From the UHGV virus genome UHGV-0277313: 64,000 bases of DNA; one strand, written 5' to 3'. Every line of letters begins with the position of its first letter. The stretch's first letter is position 1. Both the position numbers and the translations under genes were made by a program. This document shows, piece after piece, positions 1,574-30,335 of this stretch. The notes under the pieces are model-generated. The model did no database searches and had not been told where the DNA came from. It worked only from the letters and a program-made list of their open reading frames with translations. The stretch comes from a virus.

Positions 1574-2536
1574 TTAAGATTGCGTTATTTTATTGAAACT
1601 CTTGAAGTATAATTTTAAGAAATGTCTGTACTCAATTCTCTTTTTATACCTATCAGAATACGAATCAGGCTTCATATTATCAGGATCTTCGTCGCCATTT
1701 AATTTAATTATTGTAACTGTTCCATTATAAAATTTTCTTAAGGTTTTGTAATTATTTATAATTTCAGCTCGTGAAACATCCCCGTCGAAACTAAACGAAA
1801 TTTCCGTTGGGTTTTTCGACGCGATAATTCTTGCTTGCGAATCAGCTAATACTTTACCAAAAATAGATACTGCAGTCACATCTTCAGGTGTATTACGGTT
1901 AGCTGCAATACCCGAAAAAACACCTTCAGTAATAATTACTTTACCATTTGTTGATACATTCTGAATATTCCAAACAGCAAATGATTTGTGACTTCCTTGA
2001 GGATTGATATATTTTGCTTCAGGGTTTTCTGATACATAATCACGTGCAACTAAATAAACAACGTTATTATTCAAATCAAACGTCGGAACAATAATCCTTC
2101 CCCGATATCTTCCTTGCCCAATACGGATATCGTATTTTTTAATTTCTTCAAACGTTATATTTCTTGAACGCAGATACTCAACTGCATTAACAAATGAACG
2201 ATCTATTTTTACTGAAATATTGTCCAAATCAATCAATTCAGCTTGAATTAACAGACCACTCGGTGATGTATATTTTATACGCTGTTTAGTATCAATGTTG
2301 TCTAGTTTATATCTTAATAATGCACCACCATTTACATAACCTTGTAATAGCTGATCTACTCTTCCAGACCACCCACATCGATAACAATGAAATACGTTTT
2401 TTTCAAGTGATAAACTTAATTTATAATCATCATAACGTTTACCTAACATTTTACAATTTGGACAATGTGTCACATATTGATCGACATTCGATGTTAAGCT
2501 TACATCTCTCAAACTTTCAACGCGTACATCACACAT
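1574..2536 (-). CDS. 61: DNA primase (T4 gp61-like; zinc-ribbon + TOPRIM)
   Basis: N-terminal zinc-binding motif HCPNCK...(21 aa)...HCYRCGWSG, followed by a TOPRIM-like core (IIVPTFDLNNNVVYLVARDY, ...ITEGVFSG...). Lies immediately downstream of the helicase, as in the T4 41-61 order. Confidence 0.75.
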   Translation of the reverse strand: MCDVRVESLRDVSLTSNVDQYVTHCPNCKMLGKRYDDYKLSLSLEKNVFHCYRCGWSGRVDQLLQGYVNGGALLRYKLDNIDTKQRIKYTSPSGLLIQAELIDLDNISVKIDRSFVNAVEYLRSRNITFEEIKKYDIRIGQGRYRGRIIVPTFDLNNNVVYLVARDYVSENPEAKYINPQGSHKSFAVWNIQNVSTNGKVIITEGVFSGIAANRNTPEDVTAVSIFGKVLADSQARIIASKNPTEISFSFDGDVSRAEIINNYKTLRKFYNGTVTIIKLNGDEDPDNMKPDSYSDRYKKRIEYRHFLKLYFKSFNKITQS

Positions 2537-3411
2537 TATTTAACACCATTAGCAGCTTTTTTCATTTCCTTAACGTCATACGGCTCACATTCTTTCACTT
2601 GATTAGCCGCTTTATCAAAGTTTACATACACAGTTGTATTTGTTTTACCACGACGGGCTTTAGCAACATATAATCTCATTTTACCATTGTCAGACTCTTC
2701 ACGAGTTTGGTTTAATGTAACAATGCCATATGCCACATGCGCTTTTCTTGATGAATCAGCTAACATGTCTTGCGATGCCACTTCATTGTCTTCAGTGTTC
2801 CATGCAGCCTTTCCTAACTGTGAACCTGTAACAACAGGACAATTAAATTGGTCAGCTAACGCCTTCAAGTCATAAAAAATTGTACCCATTTCTTCATATG
2901 TACTTTCAGATGACCGTCGCGTTTGTTTGTTCGGTAACATTAAATCTGCATAGTCTACAATAATTAAACCAGGTTCAAAATTTTCCAAAGAATGTAACTT
3001 CGTCAAATATGTTCTCAAATGATTAGCAGATACTGTTTTATTAGAATAATAAATAGTCCTTACATTAGGTGCCCAATATTTAATTTTCTGCACACGCTGT
3101 TTGTATTTTTCAATTTGTGATTCATCCAATAAATCTCTCATTGACATACCAGTTGAACAGGAAATGATATTTGATAACACTTCCTTTTCAGACCACTCAA
3201 ACGAAAAATACACAACCGGGCGTCTCTGAAACATTGCCTGATATGCCAAAAAGCTCAAGAACTTACTTTTTCCACGACCAGGCGCTCCGCAGTTTTTACT
3301 GTAAAAACAATGACTTAGCTCGAAGTTGTGATACTTATTATTCACCGTCAAATTGTAAACAGGCACCTTTTCATCAAGGTGAATGCGTTTTTTATTTACT
3401 AATTTCATCAA
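2536..3411 (-). CDS. 41: replicative DNA helicase (gp41/DnaB family), C-terminal gene fragment; begins with a 40-aa split-intein C-half then the Walker-A extein
   Basis: Residues 1-40 MMKLVNKKRIHLDEKVPVYNLTVNNKYHNFELSHCFYSKN match the DnaE-type Int-C consensus (VYDIGVERDHNFALKNGFIASN) and end in the terminal Asn. The +1 Cys starts CGAPGRGKSKFLSFLAYQA, a DnaB/gp41-like P-loop, followed by a RecA-like core. Own strong SD AAGGAAG sits 7 nt upstream of the ATG at 3411. Confidence 0.8.
   Translation of the reverse strand: MMKLVNKKRIHLDEKVPVYNLTVNNKYHNFELSHCFYSKNCGAPGRGKSKFLSFLAYQAMFQRRPVVYFSFEWSEKEVLSNIISCSTGMSMRDLLDESQIEKYKQRVQKIKYWAPNVRTIYYSNKTVSANHLRTYLTKLHSLENFEPGLIIVDYADLMLPNKQTRRSSESTYEEMGTIFYDLKALADQFNCPVVTGSQLGKAAWNTEDNEVASQDMLADSSRKAHVAYGIVTLNQTREESDNGKMRLYVAKARRGKTNTTVYVNFDKAANQVKECEPYDVKEMKKAANGVK
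3292..3411 (-). mobile_element. split intein C-fragment (Int-C, 40 aa) of the helicase
   Basis: See CDS 2536..3411. Block F/G-like VYNLTV...YHNFELSHCFYSKN, then the +1 Cys. Confidence 0.7.
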
Positions 3412-3518
3412 TTACTTCCTTACTTAAACCCAACTTCAGAACATAATCCAAATCGTTTTTGTATAAAAACTTCAGTGATGTTATCACAAAATCAGACAGT
3501 TCGTCAACCTTTAATGTT

Positions 3519-4475
3519 TTAAAATTCATCATCTTCCGACAAATCTTCCGCTTTTTTATATGCAACACCTTCTGACCATATAACTTTTTCATCACCTTTT
3601 TTTGGATTTGTAATTCTAAATTTATGATCAGGTGTACATTTAATTGTATACCCATTATCAAAAGTTAATTCGATCAATTCGTCTGTATCTCTAGTTTTCC
3701 ATACATTATAAATATCAGTTTCGAAAGAGTTTCCATTCTCATCAACTGAATAGGCTTTTTTATCTTTAAAGTTGTTTACCAAATCTTTGATTTCGATGAA
3801 ACCTTTATTTGTTTTCACTTTTGTATCACCTGTTAAACAGAATACATACAGTTCACCTTTTGCAATGCCGCCACCAAAAGCGTCATCTAATGAAGGAATG
3901 CCTGTTGTGAACATATTATCTTTGCCATAACTGTCACGTAACATTTGAGGTAATTCATCAAGTGAACTAACCAAATCTAACCCAAGATTTGTTCCTGCAC
4001 CAACAGACAATGCATCATCGATAATAGATACGGCTTTTTCGTAATCATTTGTTTTATCATACATATCGACCAATTTACCAATTGCATCACGCATTGCAAC
4101 GCTTTTAGCAAAATCTAAAGCTTGATCTTTTATGTACTGTGCGTCTTCAATAACAGTTGTTGTTAAGCTACGAATCACTGAAGCAAAATTTTCTTGTTCG
4201 ACAATAGGAATTGCATATTTACTCGTATAATTATTCAATTCAGTCAACAAAACAGATTCAGTCGGTTTTGTATGATACTGTTCGTAATATGAAATAATCC
4301 ACTGACAAATATTTTGCAAATAGACATTATCAAAAAAAGAAGGTTTAATTAATTCCACGCCAACTGTTGATAAATAGGTGAAATCTTGAAATAATAATGC
4401 AACAATCTTTTTCTGCATTTCAACTTCAAAATTATATGTTGTATCCTGTACAACTTCTTCGTTTTCATTGTCCAT
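3519..4475 (-). CDS. 41: replicative DNA helicase (gp41/DnaB family), N-terminal gene fragment (212-aa extein) fused to a 106-aa split-intein N-half
   Basis: Extein ends ...GIPSLDDAFGGGIAKGELYVF (DnaB-like segment preceding the P-loop). Then CLTGDTKVKTNKGFIEIKDLV...AYSVDENGNSFETDIYNVWK...KCTPDHKF (intein blocks A and B, TxxH), very similar to DnaE split-intein N-halves as I recall them. ORF stops after ...EDDEF. No contiguous frame into the C-fragment. Confidence 0.8.
   Translation of the reverse strand: MDNENEEVVQDTTYNFEVEMQKKIVALLFQDFTYLSTVGVELIKPSFFDNVYLQNICQWIISYYEQYHTKPTESVLLTELNNYTSKYAIPIVEQENFASVIRSLTTTVIEDAQYIKDQALDFAKSVAMRDAIGKLVDMYDKTNDYEKAVSIIDDALSVGAGTNLGLDLVSSLDELPQMLRDSYGKDNMFTTGIPSLDDAFGGGIAKGELYVFCLTGDTKVKTNKGFIEIKDLVNNFKDKKAYSVDENGNSFETDIYNVWKTRDTDELIELTFDNGYTIKCTPDHKFRITNPKKGDEKVIWSEGVAYKKAEDLSEDDEF
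3522..3839 (-). mobile_element. split intein N-fragment (Int-N, 106 aa) of the helicase
   Basis: Cys1 of CLTGDTKV lies at residue 213 of the ORF. Block B TPDHKF present. ORF terminates about 106 aa later, typical Int-N size. Confidence 0.7.
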
Positions 4476-4514: not shown

Positions 4515-6479
4515 TCAACCTATTCTCGATTCACCCATTTTTTTAATCAACATTTTAAATTGTTCTTCATTTATTTCTGGAATTCCTTCGTTTTCTAGAT
4601 GTTGTTTCCTTTCTCTAGTCCAAGACTCAAGATATGGATGTCCTTTGTCATTAAAATCTACAAACACTGAACAGTTCAATCCTTTATCTTTTCTTCTGGT
4701 TACGCGGCCGATTCTTTGAACATGTGAAATAATATTTTTTCCAGCATCCATCAAGATACCAACATCAAATTCAGGAACATCAATACCTTCATTAAAAACA
4801 ACGTTTCCAACAATTACACGATATCCTTCTTCACGAATTGCCTTTTTAATTGTTTCAGCATTTCCCTTGCGTTCGACAACAACATGTTGAACAATACCTT
4901 TTTTTGTTTTTTCAGTCGCGTCAATAGCTTCATAAATCGTATTACCACCACACATAAATAAAGCTTTAATTCCTTTATCCTTCATTTCACGTACTATTGC
5001 TTTTCCATGTTCAATACGATTAACCATAACCAAAATTTTTAAATTATTCTTGTAACAAAATTCAATACAACGATATGCTGCTTCATTCCTATTAAAACTT
5101 TCTGCAACATATTTCTTATATACATCTGTGCAAGATTTACAAAACACAAATGATTTTGGTGCATAATTAATATAATATGAATAAACTAAAGACGAATATC
5201 CTTTATCACGAAGATACTTTGATGAAATATAATAAAACGAATTACCAAACAACGCTTTTAAAACAATATCATCAACACATTGCCCACCTTCTTTAAAAGG
5301 CGATGCTGTAAACCCAATTAAATATTCAGGATTCGCAACCATTGCGGGTATTGCAATGCTCTGACAGCTGCCGTGATGACATTCATCAACTATAATAGCT
5401 CTTACACTTTTCAGATATCTCATAATTTTTGGATCGTTACGTTTCACCATATTCCAAACTAAATTATTAGTTGAAACAATAATATCTGAATTATCCAAAA
5501 CAGGGTTTCTGTTAAGATATTCAATTTTACGGTCAATACCACGAAGTTTAGCACGACCTTCAATTTGATTTAAAATATTTGTTCGATTATTAATAACTAA
5601 AATTTTCCCATCAATTAATTTAAACAAAGATGCAATGATTTCAGTTTTACCAGAATTATGTACAATCACACCGTTGCTTAATGCAAAATTATGCAAATCA
5701 CAATCAACCTCAATATCATATACAGGAATAGGGTCTACATAATGTTCAGCAAATACTTGCTCAACAACACGACTCCCATAAACACCAGCTACAGGTGATT
5801 CAGCTAAAAGATTGATAGCTTCTACATATTTTCCATTACTTAAAAGGAAAAGATGATCGGGCGTGCATTCAACTTTAACACCATCATTAAATTTAATCTT
5901 CAATGTATCTTTAACATATTTTGACAAATGTGCCGAAACAATTGAATGAAACTTTCCATCTGAACAAAAAACAGACTTTCCATTAAAATTCATACTTAAT
6001 GAACTTAAAGTTTCAAAACCAGTATTTGTTAAAATTAAAGTATCGCCAACAAAACAACCTGTCGCAGCTTCACAGATACCATGTTTATTAATCAAACATT
6101 TTAAAGTACCAATCAATTGATGTTCACGTACTTCAAAACCAGGTGAAGCTAGTGCCATTTCATTATACGCTTGCCTAACCTTTTGCATTGTTGACTTTAC
6201 ATCAATATCAATTACTTTACGCTGATCGATTACAGTTTCAAAATGAAAATACGGTAAAATCAAATCATCAACACAACCTGATTGTACATATAAAGAAGTT
6301 TTTGTATTTTCAACTTCCATATACAATGTAATCAAACTCTGCCCATCAGCTGACAGTAATGTCAAACGTTTTTTTATACGGTTAATAAAATCAGCATCTT
6401 CATCTGAAATTAAAGACCACATCGATTTCGTAATCGTTAACATTTTATTTCTCTCAATTAGACTGTGTTTGAAAAACAA
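4515..6479 (-). CDS. uvsW: SF2 DExH-box ATP-dependent helicase, UvsW-like, interrupted by an in-frame 134-aa mini-intein in the Walker-A motif
   Basis: Extein junction ...KHGICEAATG|intein|SGKTEIIASL restores AATGSGKTE (helicase motif I). Motif II is VDECHHG. C-terminal QRIGRVTRR resembles the UvsW QTIGRVLRK. Spliced product would be about 520 aa. Confidence 0.65.
   Translation of the reverse strand: MFFKHSLIERNKMLTITKSMWSLISDEDADFINRIKKRLTLLSADGQSLITLYMEVENTKTSLYVQSGCVDDLILPYFHFETVIDQRKVIDIDVKSTMQKVRQAYNEMALASPGFEVREHQLIGTLKCLINKHGICEAATGCFVGDTLILTNTGFETLSSLSMNFNGKSVFCSDGKFHSIVSAHLSKYVKDTLKIKFNDGVKVECTPDHLFLLSNGKYVEAINLLAESPVAGVYGSRVVEQVFAEHYVDPIPVYDIEVDCDLHNFALSNGVIVHNSGKTEIIASLFKLIDGKILVINNRTNILNQIEGRAKLRGIDRKIEYLNRNPVLDNSDIIVSTNNLVWNMVKRNDPKIMRYLKSVRAIIVDECHHGSCQSIAIPAMVANPEYLIGFTASPFKEGGQCVDDIVLKALFGNSFYYISSKYLRDKGYSSLVYSYYINYAPKSFVFCKSCTDVYKKYVAESFNRNEAAYRCIEFCYKNNLKILVMVNRIEHGKAIVREMKDKGIKALFMCGGNTIYEAIDATEKTKKGIVQHVVVERKGNAETIKKAIREEGYRVIVGNVVFNEGIDVPEFDVGILMDAGKNIISHVQRIGRVTRRKDKGLNCSVFVDFNDKGHPYLESWTRERKQHLENEGIPEINEEQFKMLIKKMGESRIG
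5655..6056 (-). mobile_element. mini-intein (134 aa, no homing-endonuclease domain) inside the UvsW-like helicase P-loop
   Basis: CFVGDTLILTNTGFE (block A, Cys1) ... VECTPDHLF (block B) ... VYDIEVDCDLHNFALSNGVIVHN (blocks F/G, terminal HN), then +1 Ser. Same sequence family as the split intein in the gp41-like helicase. Confidence 0.7.
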
Positions 6480-8720: not shown

Positions 8721-8993
8721 TTAAAAACACCTTTAAAAGTTAAATATCAAATATGCTTTATCATTACATAAATTTTGCTAAATAGCAACAGAAAAGTTCT
8801 TTATTTATTTGTTGTTGACAAAGGAATATGAAAACAAATGAATGAACTTGATTTGCTGATTGAAGAATTTCAAAAAGAAATTAGAAATAAACTTGAAGAA
8901 AACAATCAAAAAACAAACTTTGCTAAATTGTTTGAAGATTTCATGATGACTATTGATAAAAAGGCGTCTAGCTTCAATTAAATACCTCAAATA

Positions 8994-10355
8994 TTAAAAC
9001 TTATTAACATCTTGCATAAAGAAATTAACGAATCTTAAAGTTTTAGACTGAAAGACTCTTTCATCAAGAGGAAACCTATATTTAAATTTAGATTTCTTTA
9101 ACTCGGAATGAATCTGTTGCCAATTCACAAAACCAACAAAGCACTTTACTTCTTCCAACGAGTGTTTTACTTTGTCTAATAATGATTCTGTTAAATCTGG
9201 AAAGATCACATTCTTCGTTTTGGCTTTAATCTTCTGTATGTATTGAAGATTAAACTCATAGCATCTTCTACTGATTTCAATAGAAGATAACACCATGTCT
9301 GGTAATTCTAAATCTCTATAGACTAGATTACCAATAGTGGATGAATATTGTGGAGATATTTCTATAAACTTAATTCCATAAATATTGCATCTCTTTTTAA
9401 GATTATTGACTAATTTATTTCTACACCAATTATTATTTACAAGTCTATTGAAATTCTTTCCTTGTTTATTATCCTTGGACTTAATAGACAAATCCTCAAC
9501 ACCAAAACATTCGCAATGATAATGTTTTGCTATATCAACAAGAAACTTGGCTACTTTCAATGTTTCATATTGACGTTTATTGTTAAGATATTTTCTTTCC
9601 TTTGATGTTGAAGGTAATTTTAATTTCTTGAGTTTATACTCAATATCATTGATATTCTTTAATGATACTACACCTGAATTTATAGCCTTTAATTCATCAG
9701 ATGATTTCCAGTCTACGACTGACCAACCAACATAATTTGGGTTCATATCGATAGAAAATATTCTGTTTGATATTGGTTTAAATATCTTTTCTGACAATAT
9801 CATTTCATCAAATGAAATATATACAAATTTTTTATCTAATTTGTATGTGATTGGAGTATCTTTCAACTGTTGATGAATATATAATTTTTGTAATACTTTA
9901 ATTCTATTACCAACACCAATAAGTTTTAAGTGTATTCTGTTTTTAATTGTTGGACTAAAGTTGACTGAATAGCAATCTTCAGATAATCTGAAGAATCTAT
10001 TTCCCCTATAGTTTCTATCACCAATTGAACACAAAGATACTAATCTTTTTTCTTTAAATTCTTCATTTGATATGTTGTGTCTAAATCTTTGTTCGAATAG
10101 ACGTTTGCCACCAAATAAAACAGTTTCTTCTTTCTTCAACAAAAATGAAGCATCTTTTACACAAGATTGTCTGAACCATGATTTCATTAAATCAAGATTA
10201 TTGAATTGTAAATGTTTACAAGCAGTTTCAGATACGCCATCTTTTAATCTATTATAAAACAAATGAAGAAGATTATTATATTGCCTCTGATAATCAGCTA
10301 TCAACTGATTATCAGATTCTTTTTCTGCAATATACTTAATCTTCAATGTTATCAT
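8994..10355 (-). CDS. TnpB/OrfB-like RuvC-fold nuclease, second diverged paralog, also lacking a zinc finger (453 aa)
   Basis: IFSIDMNPNYVGWSV (RuvC-I), ECFGVEDLSIKS (RuvC-II), FIEISPQYSSTIGNLVYRDLELPDMVLSSIEISRRC (RuvC-III Asp). N-terminal MITLKIKY... is typical of TnpB. Paralogous to 6560..7873. Confidence 0.65.
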   Translation of the reverse strand: MITLKIKYIAEKESDNQLIADYQRQYNNLLHLFYNRLKDGVSETACKHLQFNNLDLMKSWFRQSCVKDASFLLKKEETVLFGGKRLFEQRFRHNISNEEFKEKRLVSLCSIGDRNYRGNRFFRLSEDCYSVNFSPTIKNRIHLKLIGVGNRIKVLQKLYIHQQLKDTPITYKLDKKFVYISFDEMILSEKIFKPISNRIFSIDMNPNYVGWSVVDWKSSDELKAINSGVVSLKNINDIEYKLKKLKLPSTSKERKYLNNKRQYETLKVAKFLVDIAKHYHCECFGVEDLSIKSKDNKQGKNFNRLVNNNWCRNKLVNNLKKRCNIYGIKFIEISPQYSSTIGNLVYRDLELPDMVLSSIEISRRCYEFNLQYIQKIKAKTKNVIFPDLTESLLDKVKHSLEEVKCFVGFVNWQQIHSELKKSKFKYRFPLDERVFQSKTLRFVNFFMQDVNKF

Positions 10356-12199: not shown

Positions 12200-13525
12200 C
12201 TACAATTTTGCCTTAAAGACGGCATCTTTTATTTTATTATAAATAGATTGAAATTGTTCAACAATCCCCATAGTATGATTTAATTGTTTGTTGCTTGTTC
12301 GACCAAACATAATATATTGAACGGCATCTTTAAAGGCACCTGAACGATAATGAATATTCTTGCACCACATCTTAAAATTCTGTGTAACAACATGAATTAC
12401 AGTTGAATATTTATAATTCGTACTCAAAGCAATTTTAGTAATGTTTTCATATAGATATCTTAAATCTGCAACAATAACATCATCTAAAACATCACCATCA
12501 AAACGAAAACCTAATAATTGGCAATTTTCTAGAAATTCATTGAATGTACGCATACAAGTAAAGTTATGTATATTTGGATGTGCATCAACGAAATTTTGAA
12601 TTGTCGGATCTAATCCTTCTGTAACAAATTCAACAGGAATCGTTCTTTTCTGGCCACCAATTAATAAATTTTTCTTCAGTCTTTTGTGCTCTTTTAAAGT
12701 ACGTTGCATTGCAACCTTTTCCAAACGTTTACTATGTTTTGTAAACAATTTGGCAATATTCACATCAGGAATCAATAATGAAGGAACATAATTCGCTTCA
12801 TCAAATGTTTCAGGCTCACCTTCACATGTTTTAATACCCAACCCTTTACGAGTACCATCACCATGTGTTTTACAAAAATAGTGATATGCCACTAAAACAT
12901 TGATAATATTACCCCATTCTAATGAACCAAAACCAAATTCCTTATCGTCAAACCAACCATTTTGTGTTTGAATTGCCATGATGTCATAATCAATTGCATC
13001 TAATCTGGCAAGAATAATAGCTAAAGCGCAATCATGTGTATGAAAATCTTGCACCTTAACTAGTTTTTTATGTACAAATTCTTTTAATTCCAAAAAGACA
13101 TGATTCACTAAATTTGGGTTTTTAGCTAATATATCAATTGCATCTTCAGGTTTATATCTATTCAATGCTTCAATATCATATTGAACAACATTACCTTTAA
13201 TTACCTTACTTTTTTGTACTTTATATGTGCCAAATTGATCCGCCAGTTTTTTAAATACACTTCTCTTATTTTTAATTTTTCCACCACGATCAATACACCA
13301 ATCCATATTGGCAATCTTCATCTTTTCTGGTGCATAATATTGTAAAAATGTCGGGGTGAACCAACCGTAATGACTAGACATCGGCAACCCTGATTTAACA
13401 TACTTCTTCGTGAACTGACGGCCACCTAATTTGTTCATAGTTGTTACTGCAATTTTAGACAAGTCTTTTTTCTTATAAAAGACTATTTCTTCACGTAACT
13501 TTTTTAGAACATTAATAGGTAACAA
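12200..13525 (-). CDS. hypothetical protein (441 aa); first gene of the leftward early operon
   Basis: Long ORF. The caller start is TTG at 13525 and the first in-frame ATG is at residue 30, so the start is uncertain. Contains an FHTHDCA histidine cluster. No confident family assignment. Confidence 0.45.
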   Translation of the reverse strand: MLPINVLKKLREEIVFYKKKDLSKIAVTTMNKLGGRQFTKKYVKSGLPMSSHYGWFTPTFLQYYAPEKMKIANMDWCIDRGGKIKNKRSVFKKLADQFGTYKVQKSKVIKGNVVQYDIEALNRYKPEDAIDILAKNPNLVNHVFLELKEFVHKKLVKVQDFHTHDCALAIILARLDAIDYDIMAIQTQNGWFDDKEFGFGSLEWGNIINVLVAYHYFCKTHGDGTRKGLGIKTCEGEPETFDEANYVPSLLIPDVNIAKLFTKHSKRLEKVAMQRTLKEHKRLKKNLLIGGQKRTIPVEFVTEGLDPTIQNFVDAHPNIHNFTCMRTFNEFLENCQLLGFRFDGDVLDDVIVADLRYLYENITKIALSTNYKYSTVIHVVTQNFKMWCKNIHYRSGAFKDAVQYIMFGRTSNKQLNHTMGIVEQFQSIYNKIKDAVFKAKL

Positions 13526-13566
13526 TGTAGACCAACCTGTTTATCTAGATTTTTATCATAGAACAC

Positions 13567-13595
13567 ACTATAGTCTTGTTAAAAAACTTTGTCAA
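13567..13595 (-). promoter_or_regulatory. candidate sigma70-type early promoter driving the minus-strand operon
   Basis: On the minus strand: TTGACA (plus 13590-13595), 17 nt, TATAGT (plus 13567-13572). About 40 nt upstream of the 441-aa gene start. Confidence 0.35.
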
Positions 13596-13596
13596 C

Positions 13597-13854
13597 GATC
13601 TTTTTAAAAAAAATCAAATCCTCTACTATATATACTCTTTTATTATATATATATATAAAGATCTGATCATCAAAGTGAATTTCATATCAGAGAAGTGAAC
13701 ATAGATAATATATTTAGATCAGATCAGATCTTTAAGATCATAGAAGAAAAAATAAAAAATCATATGATCACAAAATCAGATCTTATTAAAAAATAAAATG
13801 ATAGAAATATCATTAACTTGAAAAGATCTAAAGATGAATAAAGATTTTAAGATC
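13597..13854. promoter_or_regulatory. GATC / AGATCT iteron-like cluster; candidate replication origin or Dam-controlled early/late switch
   Basis: 11 GATC tetranucleotides in 258 bp, at 13597, 13660, 13665, 13717, 13722, 13727, 13736, 13766, 13779, 13825 and 13851. Five are full AGATCT palindromes and three are AGATCA. Tandem AGATCAGATCAGATCT at 13716-13731. My composition-based expectation is under 1 GATC in this span. Confidence 0.5.
13644..13657. repeat. (TA)7 dinucleotide tract (potential DNA-unwinding element)
   Basis: tatatatatatata sits directly next to the GATC cluster. Confidence 0.6.
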
Positions 13855-13892
13855 TCTATATTTTTAAATACTTAAGATATTAACATTTCATA

Positions 13893-14008
13893 GGGACTTC
13901 GTTCGCTTCGCTTCGCAGGGCTACGCTCACTTCGTCCCTGATTTGTTTCTTTCTTGTATTGTCCTGGGACCCGCCCCTGTTCACTACGTTCACAGAGCCG
14001 ACCCAACC
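13893..14008. other. GC-rich island of about 115 bp in an AT-rich intergenic region; candidate structured element or ncRNA
   Basis: GGGAC TTCG (TTCGC)x3 AGGGCTACGCTCACTTC GTCCC forms an inverted pair GGGAC...GTCCC. Then GTCCtgGGAC, CCGCCCC, and the direct repeat GTTCAC-tac-GTTCAC. No tRNA cloverleaf found on either strand. Confidence 0.3.
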
Positions 14009-14027
14009 TATTACTTAAATATTTTAA

Positions 14028-14050
14028 TAAATAAAATAAATAAATAAATA
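14028..14050. repeat. (TAAA)n microsatellite
   Basis: aataaataaaataaataaataaata. Confidence 0.5.
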
Positions 14051-14340
14051 TATTCCAAAACTGATTCTCTTCGAAGAAAAGTCAATTGGTGATCATAAAG
14101 CTTAAAAGGTTTTACAGATAAAAAGGAAAATGTTAAAAAGAAAATAGGAATCCCAAAGCTAAAGGATAGAAATATTACACCCATATCCCCGCCAAAAAAT
14201 TTCCGAACGAATGAAATGAAGTTCGGAATAAACAAATATCCTAGCATTCGAATTTTTTGATATTTTAAAAATCAATATCAAATCTAAATTTAATGTTCTT
14301 AAAAGAAAATGTACTGTTTCAATGAATAGGAAATAGGTAA

Positions 14341-15834
14341 ATGAAGATTACATATGGTGATCCAAACGAATTAGAAATTGAAGAAGGCAGTTTTACGAAT
14401 ATCGAAGCTATTGATATTCCTGAAGGTAAATGTTTGTTTAGATTATTCGTAAACAAACCTAAAGATGCCAAAATTGTACTTAATGATATTGAGCAGGATT
14501 CTGTTTTAGTTGATGAAATGGATGTTGTACACTGGAATGTTACTTGTGATGGATACAAATCTTCTGTCGGTGAATTCCAGGTTATCAATTCTATTGGGTT
14601 TACTATTTCCTTATTACCTGAAAGAAAAAAGAAAAAGAGAATTAAAAATCCGTATATTAAATGGTCGGTGAATAATAAATACGGGTATCAAGTTGATATT
14701 ATTGATTTATCTGATCAGGAAGATTGTGATTTACCACTACCTTCACCTGAAGGATATGATAATACATATTTGTATGCATTTGGTGGAAATGTATATTGGA
14801 AAGAAATCAAACTTGAGAATCTATTAACGCCAAAAGTATCAGATTCAGGAAAGTATTTAACTTTTGATTCTACTAAAGGATTTTCATTTAATTCACCAAT
14901 TCCTGTATTGCCTGAAGATGAAACAGGTGTCTTTATATTAAAGAATGAAAACGGAAATTTATATTGGGCTAAAGATAATGCTCTTCCTGATTTCCCTGTC
15001 GAACAATTAGGCAATAAACAATATTATATGTTGACATATAAAGATGGTAAAATGAAATGGACTTTAAACCCGTTCACTTTACCAAAACTTCCTGATGAAA
15101 CATATTTTAATGGTGACAAGTTTGTTTTGTCATATAGAAACGATGAAACATTCTGGTCTGATGGTACTGTGTATTGGAAAGATATTAAAGGTACTATAGC
15201 TGATCAACCTGAAATTAGTGAAGATTTAAATAAAGCACTTCAAGATGCTAAAGATATGTCTGAAAAGGCAAATAATAATGCTACAGACGCTTTAGCAAAA
15301 GCTGATAAAGCACTGGCATGGGAAGATTCATTTGGTGTTGAAGCTCCTGGATTTGTCTTTATTGATGGTAAAATAAAAAATGAAGATGGATTCTATTATC
15401 CTGATGGAAGAGATATTGCTCAACTTCATACAGATTTTGATATTTTTAAAAACAGGTATTCAACATTTGAAAAATATGTTATTGCACAAGTTCAAATGAG
15501 ATTAACTTCCCCTGACTATTCACAATTAAGCAATGTCGAATATGTTATGGGTAACTTCTTTTATAATTCTAAAAAAAGATATTTACATATTGAATCGTTT
15601 GAAGTTGGTTCAACTATAGAAGTGTTTAAACCTTTATATAATGAAGATTCAGGATCGGTACAAGGACCTGATTTATCAAGTGGACCAATTATGACGATTT
15701 ATAAAAATGTGTCAGGTGTTGGTGATATTCGTATGCTTGAATTAACTACAGGGTTCTTTTATAAAGTATCAAATAAAAAATCGTTTGAATTAAAATATGT
15801 CGGAGAATTACCCTATGGCGAATACCCAGGTTGA
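14341..15834 (+). CDS. virion structural protein with internal Trp-containing repeats (497 aa); first gene of the rightward late block
   Basis: Repeated motifs NVYWKEIK / NLYWAKDN / KMKWTLNP / TFWSDGTVYWKDIK, spaced about 40 aa apart, suggesting a repeat or beta-rich fold (neck, whisker or fibre-like). Located upstream of the portal. Confidence 0.5.
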   Translation: MKITYGDPNELEIEEGSFTNIEAIDIPEGKCLFRLFVNKPKDAKIVLNDIEQDSVLVDEMDVVHWNVTCDGYKSSVGEFQVINSIGFTISLLPERKKKKRIKNPYIKWSVNNKYGYQVDIIDLSDQEDCDLPLPSPEGYDNTYLYAFGGNVYWKEIKLENLLTPKVSDSGKYLTFDSTKGFSFNSPIPVLPEDETGVFILKNENGNLYWAKDNALPDFPVEQLGNKQYYMLTYKDGKMKWTLNPFTLPKLPDETYFNGDKFVLSYRNDETFWSDGTVYWKDIKGTIADQPEISEDLNKALQDAKDMSEKANNNATDALAKADKALAWEDSFGVEAPGFVFIDGKIKNEDGFYYPDGRDIAQLHTDFDIFKNRYSTFEKYVIAQVQMRLTSPDYSQLSNVEYVMGNFFYNSKKRYLHIESFEVGSTIEVFKPLYNEDSGSVQGPDLSSGPIMTIYKNVSGVGDIRMLELTTGFFYKVSNKKSFELKYVGELPYGEYPG

Positions 15835-16489
15835 TCCGTTTTATATGAAAGCTTTAGAATCATTCAAAGAGGCGGTTTACGTTAAATCTTTAAAAGAAAA
15901 AGAAGATGATGACGTTGATTTTTTGTCATCAACTGATATGAAGATTGCTTTATGTGATTTCCTAAAGACTAATAAAGATTATTTGGACAAGTTAAAGGGT
16001 TTGGAAGACTTTTTATCTGAAGTGTTATTACAAGTAATAACAAAAAGAAAACAGGTCGAAGCAAATCCAAATGAAAAGCCAGAAGAGTCTGATTTTTTCG
16101 AGATGTTTTATGATATTCTTTATAAAGGTTTATCTGAAGAAAAATTAACTTTTCTTAATGCATATCTTGAATCAAAATCTTTAGTCGAGAATTATTCTAT
16201 CGTTGACAATAATGAAGACCCGTTTAAACAGCTTTTCGGGGTGAACTATGACCCTAAAGTTTTGAGCGGCATGTCACAACAACAAAAAGATGAACTCGCG
16301 TCTAAAGCCGCTAAAATGGACCAGAAACAACGTGAAGATTTGTATAAAGAATTAGGTGCATTATGGAAACGGTTTTCCAATTTAGAATTGCCTAGAGTGA
16401 CAGCTATTTCTGCTTTAGGTAATTTTAATCCAGTTGCAGGTTTTTTAGCAAACCTTTTGACTGGTGGGTATGGCAGGATCAATAAATAA
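15815..16489 (+). CDS. hypothetical structural-module protein (about 225 aa)
   Basis: ORF 15797..16489. Start is ambiguous between ATG 15797 and ATG 15815 (MANTQVDPFYMK). Acidic. Confidence 0.45.
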   Translation: MANTQVDPFYMKALESFKEAVYVKSLKEKEDDDVDFLSSTDMKIALCDFLKTNKDYLDKLKGLEDFLSEVLLQVITKRKQVEANPNEKPEESDFFEMFYDILYKGLSEEKLTFLNAYLESKSLVENYSIVDNNEDPFKQLFGVNYDPKVLSGMSQQQKDELASKAAKMDQKQREDLYKELGALWKRFSNLELPRVTAISALGNFNPVAGFLANLLTGGYGRINK

Positions 16490-24901: not shown

Positions 24902-24933
24902 TATTTCATAAAATAAAGTTTAAGGTGTCTTTT

Positions 24934-26592
24934 ATGAAAAAAGCTATTTGTGAATTTTGCGGTAAAGAATATGAATATGATGAAAACAATATTCGTGTTC
25001 GTGAAGAAGGAAGAAAAGATTCGTATGATTCCTCGCGGTTTTGCTGTTTTCATTGTTTTTCAAAAGAACGTGTTAGAAAACAAAAAGAGACTCTATCTAA
25101 AAGATTGGGATACGAAGTAACCAGTACATTTCATCTTCCAGGAGTTCAAGAAAAAGCTCAAGCCACTAGTCTGAAAAGATACGGTACAAAATTCGGCGTG
25201 TGTTCAAAACAGTCCGTAGAAAAAAGAAGAAAAACGTGTAAAGAACGTTACGGATTTGAAATGCCGTTGCAGAATAAAGAAATTAAACAAAAGACGTATG
25301 ATTCAAATATAAAGAATCATAACGGTACGTATCACTTGCAAACCGAAGAAGTACGCGAAAAGTGTGCTGAAGGTCATCGTACTGATGAATATAGGGAAAA
25401 AGCAAGAAGATTGTTTGATGTTAAATCGAAACATACAGAGTTTGTTGAAAAGTATGGTGTAAGCAATCCTTTTCAATTAGAGTTTGTAAAAGAAAAAAGT
25501 AAAGAAACGTTGCTGAAAAAATACGGTGTTGAAAATATTTCTAAAGATGTTTGTACTTTAGAAAAACGTAGCAATACTCGTATGCTTAATGAAGCAATAA
25601 ATGTTGACAACTTAACAAAAGATTATTTGGAAGAAAATTTTGTTAAAGAAGAAAAGTTTCAATTAAAAGAAGCAGCGGATTATTTTAATGTAACATTGTT
25701 TGCAATGGATTCGTTTAAACAGCAGTTGGATATTGTTATTCCAAATGAAGAAAAGAAGAATAATACATTAGAAACAGAATTCTTTAATTTTATTTCTTCT
25801 TTAACTGATAAAGAGATTATAAGAAATACTAGAAATGTTATTTCGCCTTTGGAGTTGGATATTTATATTCCTACAATGAATCTAGCTTTTGAGTTCAATG
25901 GTGATTATTGGCATAGTGAAAATTTTGGCAGAAGTAAATTTTATCATATTGAGAAAACAAAACAATGTGAGAAAAAAGGAATTCGTTTAATTCATATTTG
26001 GGAACATGAATGGTTAAAAAATGATGAAAAGATCAAACTATTTATCAAAAGTCTTTTTGTTAAACGAGAAAAGATTCGAGCAAGTCAATGTGTGATCAAA
26101 GATCTATCGACAGAGGAGTTTGATAAATTTGCTGATAAATATCATTTGTTAGGTGCAACGTCAACTACAGCTGTTAAGTTTGGTTTGTTTTATGATGATA
26201 CTTTAGTTTCAGCAATAGGTTTGTCTTTTGATAGTAAACATGAATTCTGGAACTTGAAGCGTTACATTATTGGAGAATACCAAGTAATGGGTGGGTTTGA
26301 AAAATTATTTAAATATTTTATTGAAAAATACAATCCGGATAAAATTATTACTTTTGTTGAGTTGTCTAAATTTAAAGGTGATGTAAACTTTAAAAATGGT
26401 TTTGTATTAGATAAGGAATTAGCACCAGATTTCTTTTGGGTTATTAATGATGTCCGTGTAGATAAATGGACAGCATGGAGACAGTTTAAAGAAAGTGATG
26501 AAAATACCGCAGAGTATCAAAAAAAGATGAAAACTTTTGCATTAAAATGTTATGATGCAGGAAAAAGACGGTTAATTTGGAATAAAAGTTAA
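24934..26592 (+). CDS. free-standing homing-endonuclease-like protein, paralog 1: N-terminal zinc finger, tandem KxYGVxxP repeats, Vsr-like PD-(D/E)xK nuclease core, conserved C-terminal domain (553 aa)
   Basis: CEFCGK...CCFHCF zinc finger. Repeats LKRYGTKFGV / KERYGFEMPLQ / EKYGVSNPFQ / KKYGVENISK. Nuclease core ISPLELDIYIPTMNLAFEFNGDYWHSE matches the Vsr/DUF559 pattern (D-I-x-x-P...A-I-F/E-x-D/N-G-x-x-W-H). Start set at ATG 24934 (SD AAGGTG) rather than the caller's GTG at 24925. Confidence 0.6.
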   Translation: MKKAICEFCGKEYEYDENNIRVREEGRKDSYDSSRFCCFHCFSKERVRKQKETLSKRLGYEVTSTFHLPGVQEKAQATSLKRYGTKFGVCSKQSVEKRRKTCKERYGFEMPLQNKEIKQKTYDSNIKNHNGTYHLQTEEVREKCAEGHRTDEYREKARRLFDVKSKHTEFVEKYGVSNPFQLEFVKEKSKETLLKKYGVENISKDVCTLEKRSNTRMLNEAINVDNLTKDYLEENFVKEEKFQLKEAADYFNVTLFAMDSFKQQLDIVIPNEEKKNNTLETEFFNFISSLTDKEIIRNTRNVISPLELDIYIPTMNLAFEFNGDYWHSENFGRSKFYHIEKTKQCEKKGIRLIHIWEHEWLKNDEKIKLFIKSLFVKREKIRASQCVIKDLSTEEFDKFADKYHLLGATSTTAVKFGLFYDDTLVSAIGLSFDSKHEFWNLKRYIIGEYQVMGGFEKLFKYFIEKYNPDKIITFVELSKFKGDVNFKNGFVLDKELAPDFFWVINDVRVDKWTAWRQFKESDENTAEYQKKMKTFALKCYDAGKRRLIWNKS

Positions 26593-26623
26593 TTCATTAA
26601 TATTCTTGTAACTATTAATAAAT

Positions 26624-26660
26624 AAAGCGATTGACGTGATTGTTGGTCGCTTTATTTTTA
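26624..26660 (+). terminator. probable rho-independent terminator after HEG paralog 1
   Basis: AAAGCGA ... TCGCTTT stem with a 16-nt loop, followed by ATTTTTATTT. Confidence 0.4.
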
Positions 26661-26849
26661 TTTAAAATAACTTTTTTAACTTTTTTATATTTTTTGTACT
26701 TAATTACTTGTTCTTAAATTTCAGATAGTTAAGTCTATCATTCATTTTCCTATTCGCGGCGTTATTCGGTTAACATTTCTATCACTTTCTCTATACGTTT
26801 TTGTATAGGGTATTTAATCGTTTAATAAACCTTGATTAGGAGAATTATA

Positions 26850-28346
26850 ATGGGTTTTTTCCAAACAATTAACGAATCTGTTGCCGAAAAAGCGGCTCTA
26901 ACAGAAAGCCAGACAGTTGCTCGTGGTAAACGTGCTCTAGCTGAACATGCCGATTGGAAAGGCCGTTTCTCTAAATTGGAAGCGATGATGGAATCTGCCG
27001 ATGCTGCCGAAGCGAAAAAAGCTAGTGTTACAGCGCAGGTTATGTCAAATCTGTCCAATTTGATGGAACGCCAGAAAGAATATTACACTGAAGCGACATT
27101 CACTTCAATGTTAGGACCTATGGCTATGTTAACCCCGCGCGTTTTGGACATCGTTGGCGTGTTCTATCCAAACATGATTGCGCACCTGATTACAGACATC
27201 CAGGTTATGGATCGTTCAACAGGTGAAATCTTCGTTCTGCGCCCTCGCTATGGTTCTGACGCTGCTGGTGTTACAGCTGGTCAGGAAATGTGGGTTAATC
27301 AGACAGACGGAACCTATGCTTCTGAATATCGTTCAGCTTCTGCGAACGGTGGTGAAACAGACGGGACCACAACCGAATTTGCGGTTTCTGGTTTGACAGC
27401 TTCTGGTGGTCCTTTGCGTCGTGGTTCAGTTACCATTAAATTGGCTGGCATTGTTGTTGGTCGTGATGACGCTCATGGCATCATGGTTGGTAAAGATCGT
27501 GAAGGTCATGTTGTTTCCGGTACAGTTGATTATGACGCTGGTGACATTACAGTTGCTTTCTCTGCCGCTCCTTCAGCTGGCAAGAGCATTATGATCGACG
27601 CGTATGTTGATTCAGAAGAAGATCCTTCTTTGATCAATGAAGTCAACTTTGACATTCAGGCTGTTCCTGTTACAGCCCGTGCGCATCCTTTGCGTTACAC
27701 TGTTTCTGCCCAGGCGACATTGGTTGCTTCAGCGCACCTTGACGTTGATGTCAATGAAGTTCTGACAAACATTGCTGCTGGCGCGATCAAACAGGAACGT
27801 GACGTTGCTCTGGTCAACATGTTGGTTGCTGCTGCGACACATCTGGATACTCTCGACTTCGACCTGGCTGATGCTACAGTCAACTATCGTAACAAACGCG
27901 ATCGTTTCGCTGATATCGAACTGAAAGTCAACGAAGCCCAGACGAAGATTCAGACCGTTGCTGGCCGTGGTGGCGTTTCCTTCATTGTTGCTGGTGCGAA
28001 TGCTGCGAACTGCTTCCGTTTGGTTGAAGGTTTCGAAGCGGCTCCTGAAGCGACAAATGCGACAGTTGGTCCTTACAAGATGGGTGCTATTCGCAATGGT
28101 ACCGTTCCTGTTATCTGCGTTCCTATTTCCCGTACTCTGAAAGCTGACGATTTCGTTATCGGATTCCGTGGCTTCCAGGCTGGTGATAGCGCGACAGTGT
28201 TGGCGGAATGGATTCCTTTGTATTTCACCCCATTGTTCGAAGCCCCCAATTTACAGAATAAACGTGGTCTGATGAGTTTGTACGACATGTTGACAAACCG
28301 TCCTGAATACCTCGTTTCTGGTAAAGTTAAAGGCTATAACGCTTAA
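26850..28346 (+). CDS. 23: major capsid protein (T4 gp23-like), 498 aa
   Basis: GPMAMLTPRVLDIVGVFYPNMIAHLITDIQVMDRSTGEIFVLRPRYGSD parallels the T4 gp23 IGPAVMGMVRRAIPNLIAFDICGVQPMNSPTGQVFALRAVYGKD. GRGGVSFIVAGANAANCF parallels GRGEGNFIIASRNVVNVL. AGGAGA SD at 26838-26843. Markedly higher GC and optimal-codon usage than the surrounding DNA. Confidence 0.85.
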   Translation: MGFFQTINESVAEKAALTESQTVARGKRALAEHADWKGRFSKLEAMMESADAAEAKKASVTAQVMSNLSNLMERQKEYYTEATFTSMLGPMAMLTPRVLDIVGVFYPNMIAHLITDIQVMDRSTGEIFVLRPRYGSDAAGVTAGQEMWVNQTDGTYASEYRSASANGGETDGTTTEFAVSGLTASGGPLRRGSVTIKLAGIVVGRDDAHGIMVGKDREGHVVSGTVDYDAGDITVAFSAAPSAGKSIMIDAYVDSEEDPSLINEVNFDIQAVPVTARAHPLRYTVSAQATLVASAHLDVDVNEVLTNIAAGAIKQERDVALVNMLVAAATHLDTLDFDLADATVNYRNKRDRFADIELKVNEAQTKIQTVAGRGGVSFIVAGANAANCFRLVEGFEAAPEATNATVGPYKMGAIRNGTVPVICVPISRTLKADDFVIGFRGFQAGDSATVLAEWIPLYFTPLFEAPNLQNKRGLMSLYDMLTNRPEYLVSGKVKGYNA

Positions 28347-28365
28347 TTTAATTAAGTGTTATAAA

Positions 28366-28403
28366 GGAAGCGGAAGCAAGAAATTGCTTCCGCTTTTCTT
28401 TTG
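28366..28403 (+). terminator. strong rho-independent terminator after the major capsid gene
   Basis: GGAAGCGGAAGC-aagaaatt-GCTTCCGCTT followed by TTCTTTTGTTTG. Confidence 0.8.
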
Positions 28404-28406
28404 TTT

Positions 28407-28416
28407 GTGATACAAT
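28407..28416 (+). promoter_or_regulatory. candidate extended -10 promoter element (TGaTACAAT) for HEG paralog 2
   Basis: gTGATACAAT. The same TGATACAAT element precedes paralog 3 at 30297-30305. Confidence 0.3.
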
Positions 28417-28434
28417 TAATTTAGTTATTTTATT

Positions 28435-30264
28435 TTGAGGAAATTTATTTTGAATAGTAATTGGCAAGATGAGTTAAGAAAATTTTTCACTGAATATGAT
28501 TTTTCTGGATTTGTTTTGGAAATCAATAGTGGAAAAGAGTTTCAGTTTGGCAGTATCAGTCAAAATAAAAAGTTATTTTTAAATGTACAAAAAGAGTTGT
28601 CAAATTATTTTTCAAAACCTGGTGATTTAGGTGCATGTTTACTTTACCTAAAAGATCATTCAATAGATGAGTTGCTTAACAAATTAGAATGTCCAGTTTG
28701 TCATAAATTTAATGGTGTGTTTAGATTCAACAGACAACGTTGTGATGAGCATGTTTTTTGTTCAAGAGATTGTCGATATTCGTTAAAAGGTAAAACTTTA
28801 TTGATGAATCGATATAAAGAGAAAACAGGGTACGATAGTCCATATAGCAACCCAAAAGTTCAACAGAAACGAAAAGAGAACTTTTTGAGGAACTATGGTG
28901 TTGAATCGCCTATGCAAGTAGAAGAGTTTAAGAAAAGAAATATAGAAAGCAATAGAAACAATCACTGTGGTCTTCTAGCATGTCAGACTGAAGAAGTTAA
29001 GTTAAAAATAAAAGAAACGAATTTAAAGAATCACCATGGTGTGTTTAATTTGCAATTACCTGAAACAAAAGAAAAGTTAATTAAGCTGTCAAATGAACGA
29101 TATGGTGTAGATTTTCCTATAGCGAATAGTGACATCAGAAACAGACAGGAAAGGTTTTACGATGGTGTTGGTTTAGCATCATATATAATTAGAAAGAAAG
29201 CAGAAGAAACGTTTGGTGGGCCTTTAAACGGGTCTAATCCAATTATTTTTGAAAAGATGAAACAAACGGTAGAAAACAAAACAGGAAAGAGTTTTGAAGA
29301 AGCTGTTACTGAAAACATGCAACGTGGTTTAAAAGAAAAGTTTGGTGATGAAATAGGTTTTGCCAATGAAAAGATTGCAGCTAAAATTCAGAAACAGGTT
29401 GTTGAAAAATTTAACGTTCCTTATTTTTGTTTAACTGATAAATGTAGACAGGCAAATAAAAAGACAATTTCAAAAAGAAATGTGATGTTTGCCGAAAAGT
29501 TGAGAAAGTTAGGTTATGAAGTTGGTTTAGATTCGGTAAAGCTTGAGACTTTTTCATACGATATCTGTTTGGAAAAAGAAAAGATTTTGATAGAAATAGA
29601 TCCATCTTTTACACATAATTCGACAAGAAACCCGTTTGGTTCTGTACGGTTACCAGATTATCATTTAAGGAAATCTGAAGTTGCAAGAAGGTTTGGTTAT
29701 AGGTGCATTCACATTTTTGATTGGGATGATGAAAAAAAAGTTTTAGGTTTATTTGAAAAGAGCGAAAGAATCTATGCTAGAAAGTGTGAAGTTAGGGTAG
29801 TTGATTTTGAAAGTTGTTCAGAATTCTTAAATCGCTATAGTTTAACGAATTGTTTAACAAAAGAAGATGTTTGTTTATGTTTGTTTTATAATGAACTATT
29901 AGTTCAAATTATGGTTTTTGGAAAACCTAGAAAAGATAAAGACATTCAATATGAATTGTTGCATTTTTGTAGCAGAAAAGGTTTTAGAATCATTGGTGGT
30001 GTAAGCAGGTTATTCAGCTATTTCAAAAATAAATTTAAACCTGAATCATTAGTTTCATATTGTGATTTTTCAAAATTTGAAGGAGCTGTTTATGAAATTT
30101 TAGGGTTTCATAAAGTTGACGAATTGATACCAGTTTGTCATCTATCCAAAAAGAAACAACAATTCATTATTGAAGATAGTTGTGAAAAGATAGATTTGAT
30201 AGAAAAAGGTTTTGTAGAAGTTTTTGATTGTGGCTATAAAAAATATTTGTTTTGTGTAAAATAA
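28435..30264 (+). CDS. free-standing homing-endonuclease-like protein, paralog 2 (about 605 aa): zinc finger, YG-repeats, PD-(D/E)xK-like core, conserved C-terminal domain
   Basis: CPVCHKF...CSRDCRY zinc finger. Repeats LRNYGVESPMQVEEFKKR / NERYGVDFPIANSDIR. Core YDICLEKEKILIEIDPSFTHN. C-terminal IYARKCEVRVVDFESCSEFLNRYSL...GKPRKDKDIQYELLHFCS...GGVSRLFSYF is shared with paralogs 1 and 3. No in-frame ATG near the 5' end. Probable start is TTG at 28435, or TTG at 28450, which has GAGGAAA SD 6 nt upstream. Confidence 0.55.
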   Translation: MRKFILNSNWQDELRKFFTEYDFSGFVLEINSGKEFQFGSISQNKKLFLNVQKELSNYFSKPGDLGACLLYLKDHSIDELLNKLECPVCHKFNGVFRFNRQRCDEHVFCSRDCRYSLKGKTLLMNRYKEKTGYDSPYSNPKVQQKRKENFLRNYGVESPMQVEEFKKRNIESNRNNHCGLLACQTEEVKLKIKETNLKNHHGVFNLQLPETKEKLIKLSNERYGVDFPIANSDIRNRQERFYDGVGLASYIIRKKAEETFGGPLNGSNPIIFEKMKQTVENKTGKSFEEAVTENMQRGLKEKFGDEIGFANEKIAAKIQKQVVEKFNVPYFCLTDKCRQANKKTISKRNVMFAEKLRKLGYEVGLDSVKLETFSYDICLEKEKILIEIDPSFTHNSTRNPFGSVRLPDYHLRKSEVARRFGYRCIHIFDWDDEKKVLGLFEKSERIYARKCEVRVVDFESCSEFLNRYSLTNCLTKEDVCLCLFYNELLVQIMVFGKPRKDKDIQYELLHFCSRKGFRIIGGVSRLFSYFKNKFKPESLVSYCDFSKFEGAVYEILGFHKVDELIPVCHLSKKKQQFIIEDSCEKIDLIEKGFVEVFDCGYKKYLFCVK

Positions 30265-30277
30265 ATTGAAAATTTTG

Positions 30278-30305
30278 TTGACATTTATTGTGTTTATGAT
30301 ACAAT
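30278..30305 (+). promoter_or_regulatory. sigma70-type promoter (with TG-extended -10) for HEG paralog 3
   Basis: TTGACA (30278-30283), 16 nt, TACAAT (30300-30305), with TG at 30297-30298. Confidence 0.45.
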
Positions 30306-30335
30306 ATGATTATATATTGTAAGAGGTTTTTTGTA

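Follow-up and report, generated by a model that had tools for sequence, protein, structure and literature searches.

Why should a short intergenic stretch of a phage genome be crowded with copies of a single tetranucleotide? The question is raised by a cluster of GATC sites in the window, the term used here for the whole 64,000-nucleotide stretch of viral DNA that was analyzed. An earlier note on this DNA had counted 11 GATC sites within 258 bp (13597-13854), and a recount in which every GATC in the window was listed gives the same number, with sites at 13597, 13660, 13665, 13717, 13722, 13727, 13736, 13766, 13779, 13825 and 13851. The number expected per 258 bp is 0.61 at the rate of the window (151 sites per 64 kb) and 0.41 from the local mononucleotide composition. 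The Poisson probability of at least 11 sites is 6e-11 for the cluster, or about 4e-6 when corrected for all window positions. The note had also proposed that GATC and AGATCT be counted more widely, and when this was done over the 64-kb window no second cluster emerged: the runner-up 258-bp span holds 4 GATC sites, and the other intergenic regions have no more than three each.

Outside the cluster, GATC is scarce. With the cluster masked, a maximal-order Markov model predicts 223 sites where 140 are observed (O/E 0.63), and the array therefore stands out from a depleted background. Among 4-bp palindromes counted without the cluster, the most avoided are CCGG (O/E 0.46), GATC (0.63, the second) and CATG (0.71), a pattern that hints at restriction pressure in the host. 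The hexamer AGATCT occurs nine times in the window, where 16.6 occurrences are expected, and five of these are inside the cluster. The proposal that AGATCT might serve as a BglII-type restriction-modification target was rejected, because the count outside the cluster (4 versus 6.7 expected under the Markov model) does not depart significantly from expectation.

What, then, is the repeated unit? The iteron (A/C)AGATC(T/A) proposed in the earlier note holds in part. Eight of the 11 sites read AGATC and five read AGATCT, and the tandem of three AGATC units, AGATCAGATCAGATCT, is present at 13716-13731 as described, but the repeat is weakly defined and its flanks are mostly just A/T-rich. Two of the 11 sites have the context TGATCA. 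When the flanks of 31 GATC sites from two lineages were compared, they proved to be A/T-rich with a modest preference for AAGATCTT and little other information. Because the flanks are nearly uninformative, GATC itself is the constrained or selected unit.

The window belongs to an uncultivated huge phage of about 313 kb. Its relatives repeatedly assemble to 313.4-314.2 kb, and the 313-kb genomes run through the intergenic region that carries the array. A megablast search with 12200-15900 against cultured phages gave no match, and the closest cultured capsid protein is 42% identical. A capsid gene with 96% identity is found on a 175-kb contig that was binned with an Erysipelotrichaceae metagenome-assembled genome; this binning, on which the host assignment depends, is a weak hint that the host belongs to the Bacillota.

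The array sits in an 815-bp intergenic region (13526-14340) between the first genes of two arms. To its left, on the minus strand, lie genes for a DnaG-like primase, an intein-split DnaB-like helicase and an SF2 helicase. To its right, on the plus strand, lie genes for a Gp80-like protein, a T4-like portal, a prohead protease, a gp23-like capsid protein and a chaperonin, as well as for baseplate and fibre proteins. The array had been placed at an early/late divergence point, and this layout, with the replication-gene arm on one side and the structural-gene arm on the other, agrees with that description.

Several proteins near the array resist annotation. The first early protein (441 aa, encoded at 12200-13525) has no match among Pfam, PHROG or PDB sequences or profiles, and its AlphaFold2 model (pLDDT 46) has no confident fold. 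An exhaustive representative search returned eight matches, five of them strong and full-length, which is consistent with a family confined to its own phage group. Likewise, the 497-, 230- and 223-aa proteins next to the array have no Pfam or PHROG match, and the searches gave the 497-aa protein, which like the 441-aa one flanks the region, no identity.

Some further features of the two arms can be recorded here. The segments 2536-4475 and 4515-6479 hold the DnaB-like helicase, split by an intein-containing segment, and the SF2 helicase, which has intein and HINT signatures. The SF2 helicase is 959 aa long in the lineage of L015 (handles beginning with L denote related loci) versus 642-654 aa here, and from this difference in length it follows that intein content varies between lineages. 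An ORF of 453 aa at 8994-10355, with weak transposase and SSO2105_N matches, is an insertion; at the same place L010, L014, L015, L081 and L085 hold a counter-oriented gene of 173-175 aa, of which the insertion-bearing strains keep only a 69-aa remnant. In the other arm, three consecutive large ORFs (555, 609 and 615 aa; 24925-32153) flank the capsid gene, and all have DUF7487.

The intergenic region is not a featureless spacer. Its parts, from left to right, are as follows.

13567-13595, minus strand: sigma-70-like early promoter, TTGACA-17-TATAGT, 11 of 12 matches
13597-13600, no strand: outlying GATC touching the -35 hexamer, not conserved in L001 or L014
13620-13626, plus strand: CCTCTAC box between the promoter and the TA tract, kept even in distant relatives
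13623-13662, no strand: AT-rich tract with (TA)7 at 13644-13657, dG -36.4 versus a mean of -48.6
13656-13668: left arm of a perfect 13-bp inverted repeat, TAAAGATCTGATC, containing two GATC sites
13660-13854, no strand: main body of the GATC array, with 10 sites over 195 bp
13669-13716, no strand: 48-bp core, ATCAAAGTGAATTTCATATCAGAGAAGTGAACATAGATAATATATTTA, in which two (A)GTGAA(C/T) units are separated by 20 bp
13722-13734: right arm of the inverted repeat, GATCAGATCTTTA, part of the triple AGATC tandem
13893-14008, no strand: GC-rich island that three lineages conserve and that has no second copy in the window
14014-14053, no strand: second AT tract, (AAAT)n, which ranks lowest in stability among the 40-bp stretches of the 64 kb
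14201-14228, plus strand: conserved hairpin, TTCCGAAC-N12-GTTCGGAA, ahead of the gene that opens the structural arm
14244-14251 and 14293-14310: motifs GCATTCGA and ATGTTCTTAAAAGAAAAT, which follow the hairpin

The minus-strand promoter facing the early operon is present as the earlier note had it, and its -35 hexamer is kept in L001, L014 and L008. It would drive the first gene of the replication arm. The (TA)7 repeat was likewise found beside the cluster, and the view that this tract is easily unwound gains support from its rank as the second least stable 40-bp stretch of the 64 kb, which makes the tract a candidate unwinding element. The two least stable stretches thus bracket the GATC array. 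Both are variable in length among strains, the TA repeat by up to 10 bases, and the (AAAT)n tract is also length-polymorphic. Within the array, the piece AGATCTTTAAGATC at 13726-13739 is the only one common to all three lineages that carry such an array.

The GC island carries GTTCACTACGTTCAC, which is identical to a 15-mer of the L014 core. The island is also unique in IMG/VR, and the genome around it is 31% GC; a search of JGI metagenomes with a 17-mer from the island gave almost only chance matches in high-GC contigs. An ORF of 123-128 aa, which some gene callers place over the island in some strains, was rejected as noncoding, because the indels among strains are not multiples of three and the product is of low complexity. 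Folding of the island gave z = -0.1 for the plus strand and -2.4 for the minus strand, and no Rfam match was found. For the array, fold scores were z = -1.4 and -1.5, and neither RNA nor DNA folds of the array and inverted-repeat module were significant. Scans of the region for tRNAs and Rfam families yielded nothing relevant.

Nearer to the structural arm, the hairpin is followed by the motif GCATTCGA and then by ATGTTCTTAAAAGAAAAT, about 30-50 nt ahead of the first structural gene. Most relatives also have the motif ATGTTCTT, and a version of the hairpin with a changed stem is present in L005 and L011. The segment from the hairpin to ATGTTCTTAAAAGAAAAT is probably a late-gene control region (a late promoter or leader) that is separate from the GATC array.

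Comparison with related phages provides a useful view of what is kept in this region. The phage's own lineage (L010, L081-L085) retains 10 or 11 of the 11 sites. In L014, whose early protein is 75% identical, the intergenic region holds 18 GATC sites, of which 16 fall in a span of about 380 bp. The count is 20 in a third lineage (L001, L015-L020 and L025; early protein 69% identical, late protein 90%). In the remainder of these loci, GATC occurs at about 2 per kb, with at most 4 per 258 bp. No k-mer is more enriched than AGATC in any of the three lineages (P from 3e-13 to 5e-23), and among tetramers with the composition of GATC, GATC alone is enriched. Nevertheless, the three-lineage alignment of the intergenic region, which has about 67% column identity and many indels, contains only two or three GATC sites that are shared in position. 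The density of GATC is therefore maintained in three lineages while the positions of the sites turn over. Within the phage's own lineage, variable columns number 2 of 48 in GATC sites versus 75 of 797 elsewhere, a difference that is not significant.

More distant relatives do not carry the array. Syntenic relatives (L008, L002-4 and L089) have an intergenic region of 250-300 bp with zero or one GATC, and L011, whose late protein is 67% identical, has a region of 725 bp with none. Absence of the element from close relatives with the same gene order, combined with a lack of any skew or coverage inflection, had been named in the earlier note as refuting evidence. Three lineages keep the array, but the syntenic relatives at 67% identity or less are without it. 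The array is therefore clade-specific and fairly recent, and it is neither ancestral nor indispensable at this junction, so that whatever role it has must be dispensable or replaceable. In L011, at 1440-1680 and thus in the same place, 8-10 same-strand units of TTTTAGAA(T/A) occur, and these may represent a different iteron in a sister lineage. Also, the palindrome GAAATAAATTTC is located between GATC sub-clusters in the intergenic region of L014 (three copies) and at 5253 in L001, and is absent from the window.

The 48-bp core is the best-conserved part between the window and L001, with a forward score of 26 versus a null of 7.6. Against L014, its reverse complement scores 14.5 and 16 versus a null of about 7 +/- 2, and the forward orientation does no better than the null. 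The flipped core of L014 lies at about 133-250 of its intergenic region (numbered on the reverse complement of 8945-10000). A cassette of roughly 80 bp (13656-13734), bounded by the inverted repeat, has thus flipped during evolution, with L014 differing from the window and L001. Both orientations of the core were not seen within any one sample. Since the core is inverted in L014, it would be expected to work either way round, a property more in keeping with a binding site than with a directional promoter.

In nine contigs, each from a different sample or assembly (L005-L007, L012-L013, L019-L020 and L086-L087), the sequence stops inside the intergenic region. Their ends are scattered, including within the TA microsatellite, and their sequence equals the reference up to the end. 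Genome termini and two coexisting orientations were considered as causes and rejected, because scattered ends that match the reference are what ordinary assembly breaks at microsatellites and strain variation would give, rather than fixed termini.

Is replication likely to start here? The earlier note had proposed GC skew as a check, and in the 64-kb window the skew changes sign at the junction that carries the array, from about -0.2 on the left to +0.2 on the right, with a cumulative minimum at 13-15 kb. The G-rich strand leads away on both sides, as at an origin. Gene orientation switches at the same point, and the third codon positions of counter-oriented genes were therefore used to separate the two effects. 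On the coding strand of a counter-oriented gene of 1223 aa in the right arm (58576-62247, minus strand), 73 third positions are G and 167 are C (skew -0.39, p 1e-9), whereas every co-oriented gene has a skew of the other sign, from +0.15 to +0.5. The direction is the same in L014 and L015, where the 173-175-aa gene that runs against the early arm has a G3/C3 of 12/24. Third-position skew thus follows the arm and not the transcribed strand, as a replication-driven bias around an origin predicts. This arm-specific asymmetry is suggestive of a bidirectional origin at this place, in a test that comprises one large and one small gene. Skew indicative of bidirectional replication is found in about 30% of huge phage genomes (PMC7162821).

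Components of known origins were sought as well. No DnaA boxes (TTATCCACA-like, with at most one mismatch) occur between 11111 and 20821, and the 16 matches found window-wide compare with 24 expected. The oriC-type GATCTnTTnTTTT 13-mers are at their expected frequency in the window (102 versus 105), extreme AT tracts being present nonetheless. A search for Dam-, SeqA- or MutH-like domains in the window, which represents 64 kb of a genome of about 313 kb, gave no match in ORFs of 100 aa or longer. SeqA is a gammaproteobacterial protein, and the suggestion that it reads the array finds no backing, given that no SeqA domain was found in these ORFs and the host hint points to the Bacillota.

Overall, the GATC-dense stretch is most likely part of a replication origin or of its control region, although the searches turned up no protein that reads it. 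More specifically, we assign a probability of roughly 40% to the reading in which the 815-bp region is, or adjoins, a bidirectional origin and the array is a multivalent pad for a protein that reads GATC. All three elements of this reading, namely a replication start at this place, protein binding to GATC and an involvement of methylation, are what we infer from the evidence assembled above. The putative reader is possibly methylation-sensitive, and it may be encoded by the phage or by the host. Under such a mechanism, the AT tracts at 13623-13662 and 14014-14053 would melt easily on the flanks of the inverted-repeat and core module, and an initiator or regulator would bind the 48-bp core through its two GTGAA(C) units. 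Occupancy of the GATC sites, which would depend on their density rather than their exact positions, would then time the firing of the origin, the early promoter or both. For example, hemimethylated GATC might be occupied, or left free, after a fork has passed.

The origin reading draws its support from the enrichment of GATC, its uniqueness in the 64 kb and the retention of density despite site turnover. It is further supported by the arm-specific skew switch, the instability of the AT tracts, the adjoining primase and helicase genes, the inverted-repeat and core anatomy, and the inversion of the core in one lineage. The same reading is weakened by the lack of an initiator homologue, of DnaA boxes and of a Dam-, SeqA- or MutH-like domain in the window, and by the absence of the array at 67% identity or less. 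It is also weakened by the coincidence of the skew switch with the gene-orientation switch, by the lack of helical phasing, and by GATC columns that are not significantly less variable within the lineage.

The main rival is transcriptional control in which replication has no part. The GATC palindromes would be operators for a dimeric phage regulator, or a Dam-type switch, and the array would be a lineage-specific operator array that coordinates the late operon with the early promoter diverging from it. This is a possible explanation, if a tentative one. The array lies 65-260 bp upstream of the strong early promoter and between divergent operons, the sites lean toward the palindrome AAGATCTT, further palindromes (GAAATAAATTTC) are available in L014 and L001, and the TTTTAGAA(T/A) array of L011 suggests that each lineage might pair its own iterons with its own protein. 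However, the enrichment of TAGAA in L011 (12 versus 3 expected, P 6e-5 over about 500 k-mers) is marginal once corrected for multiple tests, the information in the flanks is very low for a sequence-specific operator, and nowhere else in the 64 kb does a promoter or an intergenic region use the GATC motif. Furthermore, operators would leave the arm-specific third-position skew and the extreme AT tracts unexplained.

A more particular proposal is that the phage has independently evolved an oriC-like, methylation-read array, for which a phage-encoded reader or methylase would time the origin or the early-late switch. This would apply to a phage of a low-GC host, probably one of the Bacillota, to a young array gained in one clade whose sister lineages have another iteron or none, and to a cassette of inverted repeat and core that can invert. 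We regard it as rather doubtful.

The array might instead be the functionless product of slippage at AGATC, together with duplication or template switching, in a fast-evolving and microsatellite-rich spacer. Of 40 nearest-neighbour GATC spacings, eight are exactly 5 bp, as tandems of AGATC or GATCT would give; there is a preference for 5 and 9 bp, and no helical phasing was detected (Rayleigh p > 0.1). The polymorphic (TA)n and (AAAT)n microsatellites, the many indels, a core that is inverted between inverted repeats, the distant relatives without an array and the many assemblies that break in the region all look like the work of such processes. Yet most sites are spread over 200-500 bp and are not in tandem, tetramers of the same composition show no enrichment, and three lineages that have diverged by indels keep 11-20 sites while the remaining genome avoids GATC. 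A non-adaptive origin of the array is accordingly improbable.

Two other candidate roles are less probable still. The first is a methylation-gated packaging site, heading the structural module, of the kind known from phage P1, where pac is a site of GATC hexamers whose cleavage is controlled by methylation (PMC10028697). The position of the array directly upstream of the structural arm and the nine contigs that end in the region could be read in this way, but TGATCA is present at two of 11 sites only, and the site is intergenic rather than within a terminase gene. In addition, a search of the ORFs adjoining the array found no recognizable terminase domain, the contig ends are scattered and match the reference, and the 313-kb genomes assemble straight through, all of which makes a packaging site very unlikely. 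Equally little probability is given to a centromere-like partition site or a TubR/ParR-type nucleoprotein scaffold that positions phage DNA: huge phages often carry segregation or cytoskeletal systems, and short multicopy repeats whose density outweighs their position would suit one, but no ParA, ParB, TubZ or TubR-like domain was found in window ORFs and the spacing of the sites is irregular.

The locus offers a compact and testable anatomy of AT tracts, GATC array, inverted-repeat core and GC island at an origin-like junction defined by skew. Sister lineages that carry another repeat, or none, provide natural contrasts. Should the reading of GATC prove to depend on methylation, origin control in the style of Dam and SeqA would extend to phages of gut Firmicutes, beyond the gammaproteobacteria and plasmids.

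Known systems parallel this locus in some respects and differ from it in others. The origin of E. coli, oriC, contains 11 GATC sites that have been described as phylogenetically conserved (PMC5145175). The density found here is nearly identical, a candidate AT-rich unwinding tract lies beside the array, and the cumulative GC skew is at its minimum. Unlike oriC, the region has no DnaA boxes and no enrichment of 13-mers, and its GATC positions turn over between lineages; moreover, it belongs to a phage rather than a chromosome, the window has no Dam or SeqA gene, and the host is probably not a gammaproteobacterium. Thus, of the oriC/SeqA architecture that had been proposed, the GATC density and the skew minimum stand, the extreme AT tracts are present without enriched 13-mers, the DnaA boxes are missing and membership in this class is unsupported.

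At the chromosome-2 origin of Vibrio cholerae, each iteron for RctB contains a GATC, and the P1 plasmid origin oriR has GATC-containing heptamers in an AT-rich region. These iterons are 11-12-mers or 7-mers with defined flanks, they are served by the initiators RctB and RepA, and their methylation state gates initiator binding or opening. The present array resembles them in having GATC within repeated elements. It differs in that the flanks are nearly uninformative, with a weak preference for AAGATCTT, and no initiator homologue was found.

The pac site of P1 spans 161 bp and has seven GATC-containing hexamers, and its methylation state controls cleavage (PMC10028697). Here too the GATC cluster is borne by a phage, methylation-dependent reading being a feature of P1. 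Unlike pac, the array is intergenic, TGATCA/G is not dominant, and neither an adjoining terminase nor fixed termini were found.

In the T4 origins oriF and oriG, an unwinding element lies downstream of a promoter whose transcript forms an R-loop that primes synthesis. Here, too, a promoter occurs together with an AT tract that would unwind easily, and the portal and capsid proteins of the phage are T4-like. The strong promoter of this locus, however, faces left, so that its transcript leads away from both the AT tract and the array. The only plus-strand promoter candidate is weak: it matches at 9 of 12 positions, has an unconserved -35 element and lies in a segment that is inverted in L014. 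The promoter-dependent origin of T4 type that the earlier note had suggested is consequently not favoured.

A further comparison is provided by other huge phages, whose bacterial-type bidirectional skew is matched by the skew seen here. The origins reported by Al-Shayeb et al. (2020) were placed by skew and coverage only, with no sequence anatomy (PMC7162821), and it is in this respect that the present locus differs, since a sequence anatomy is offered for it.
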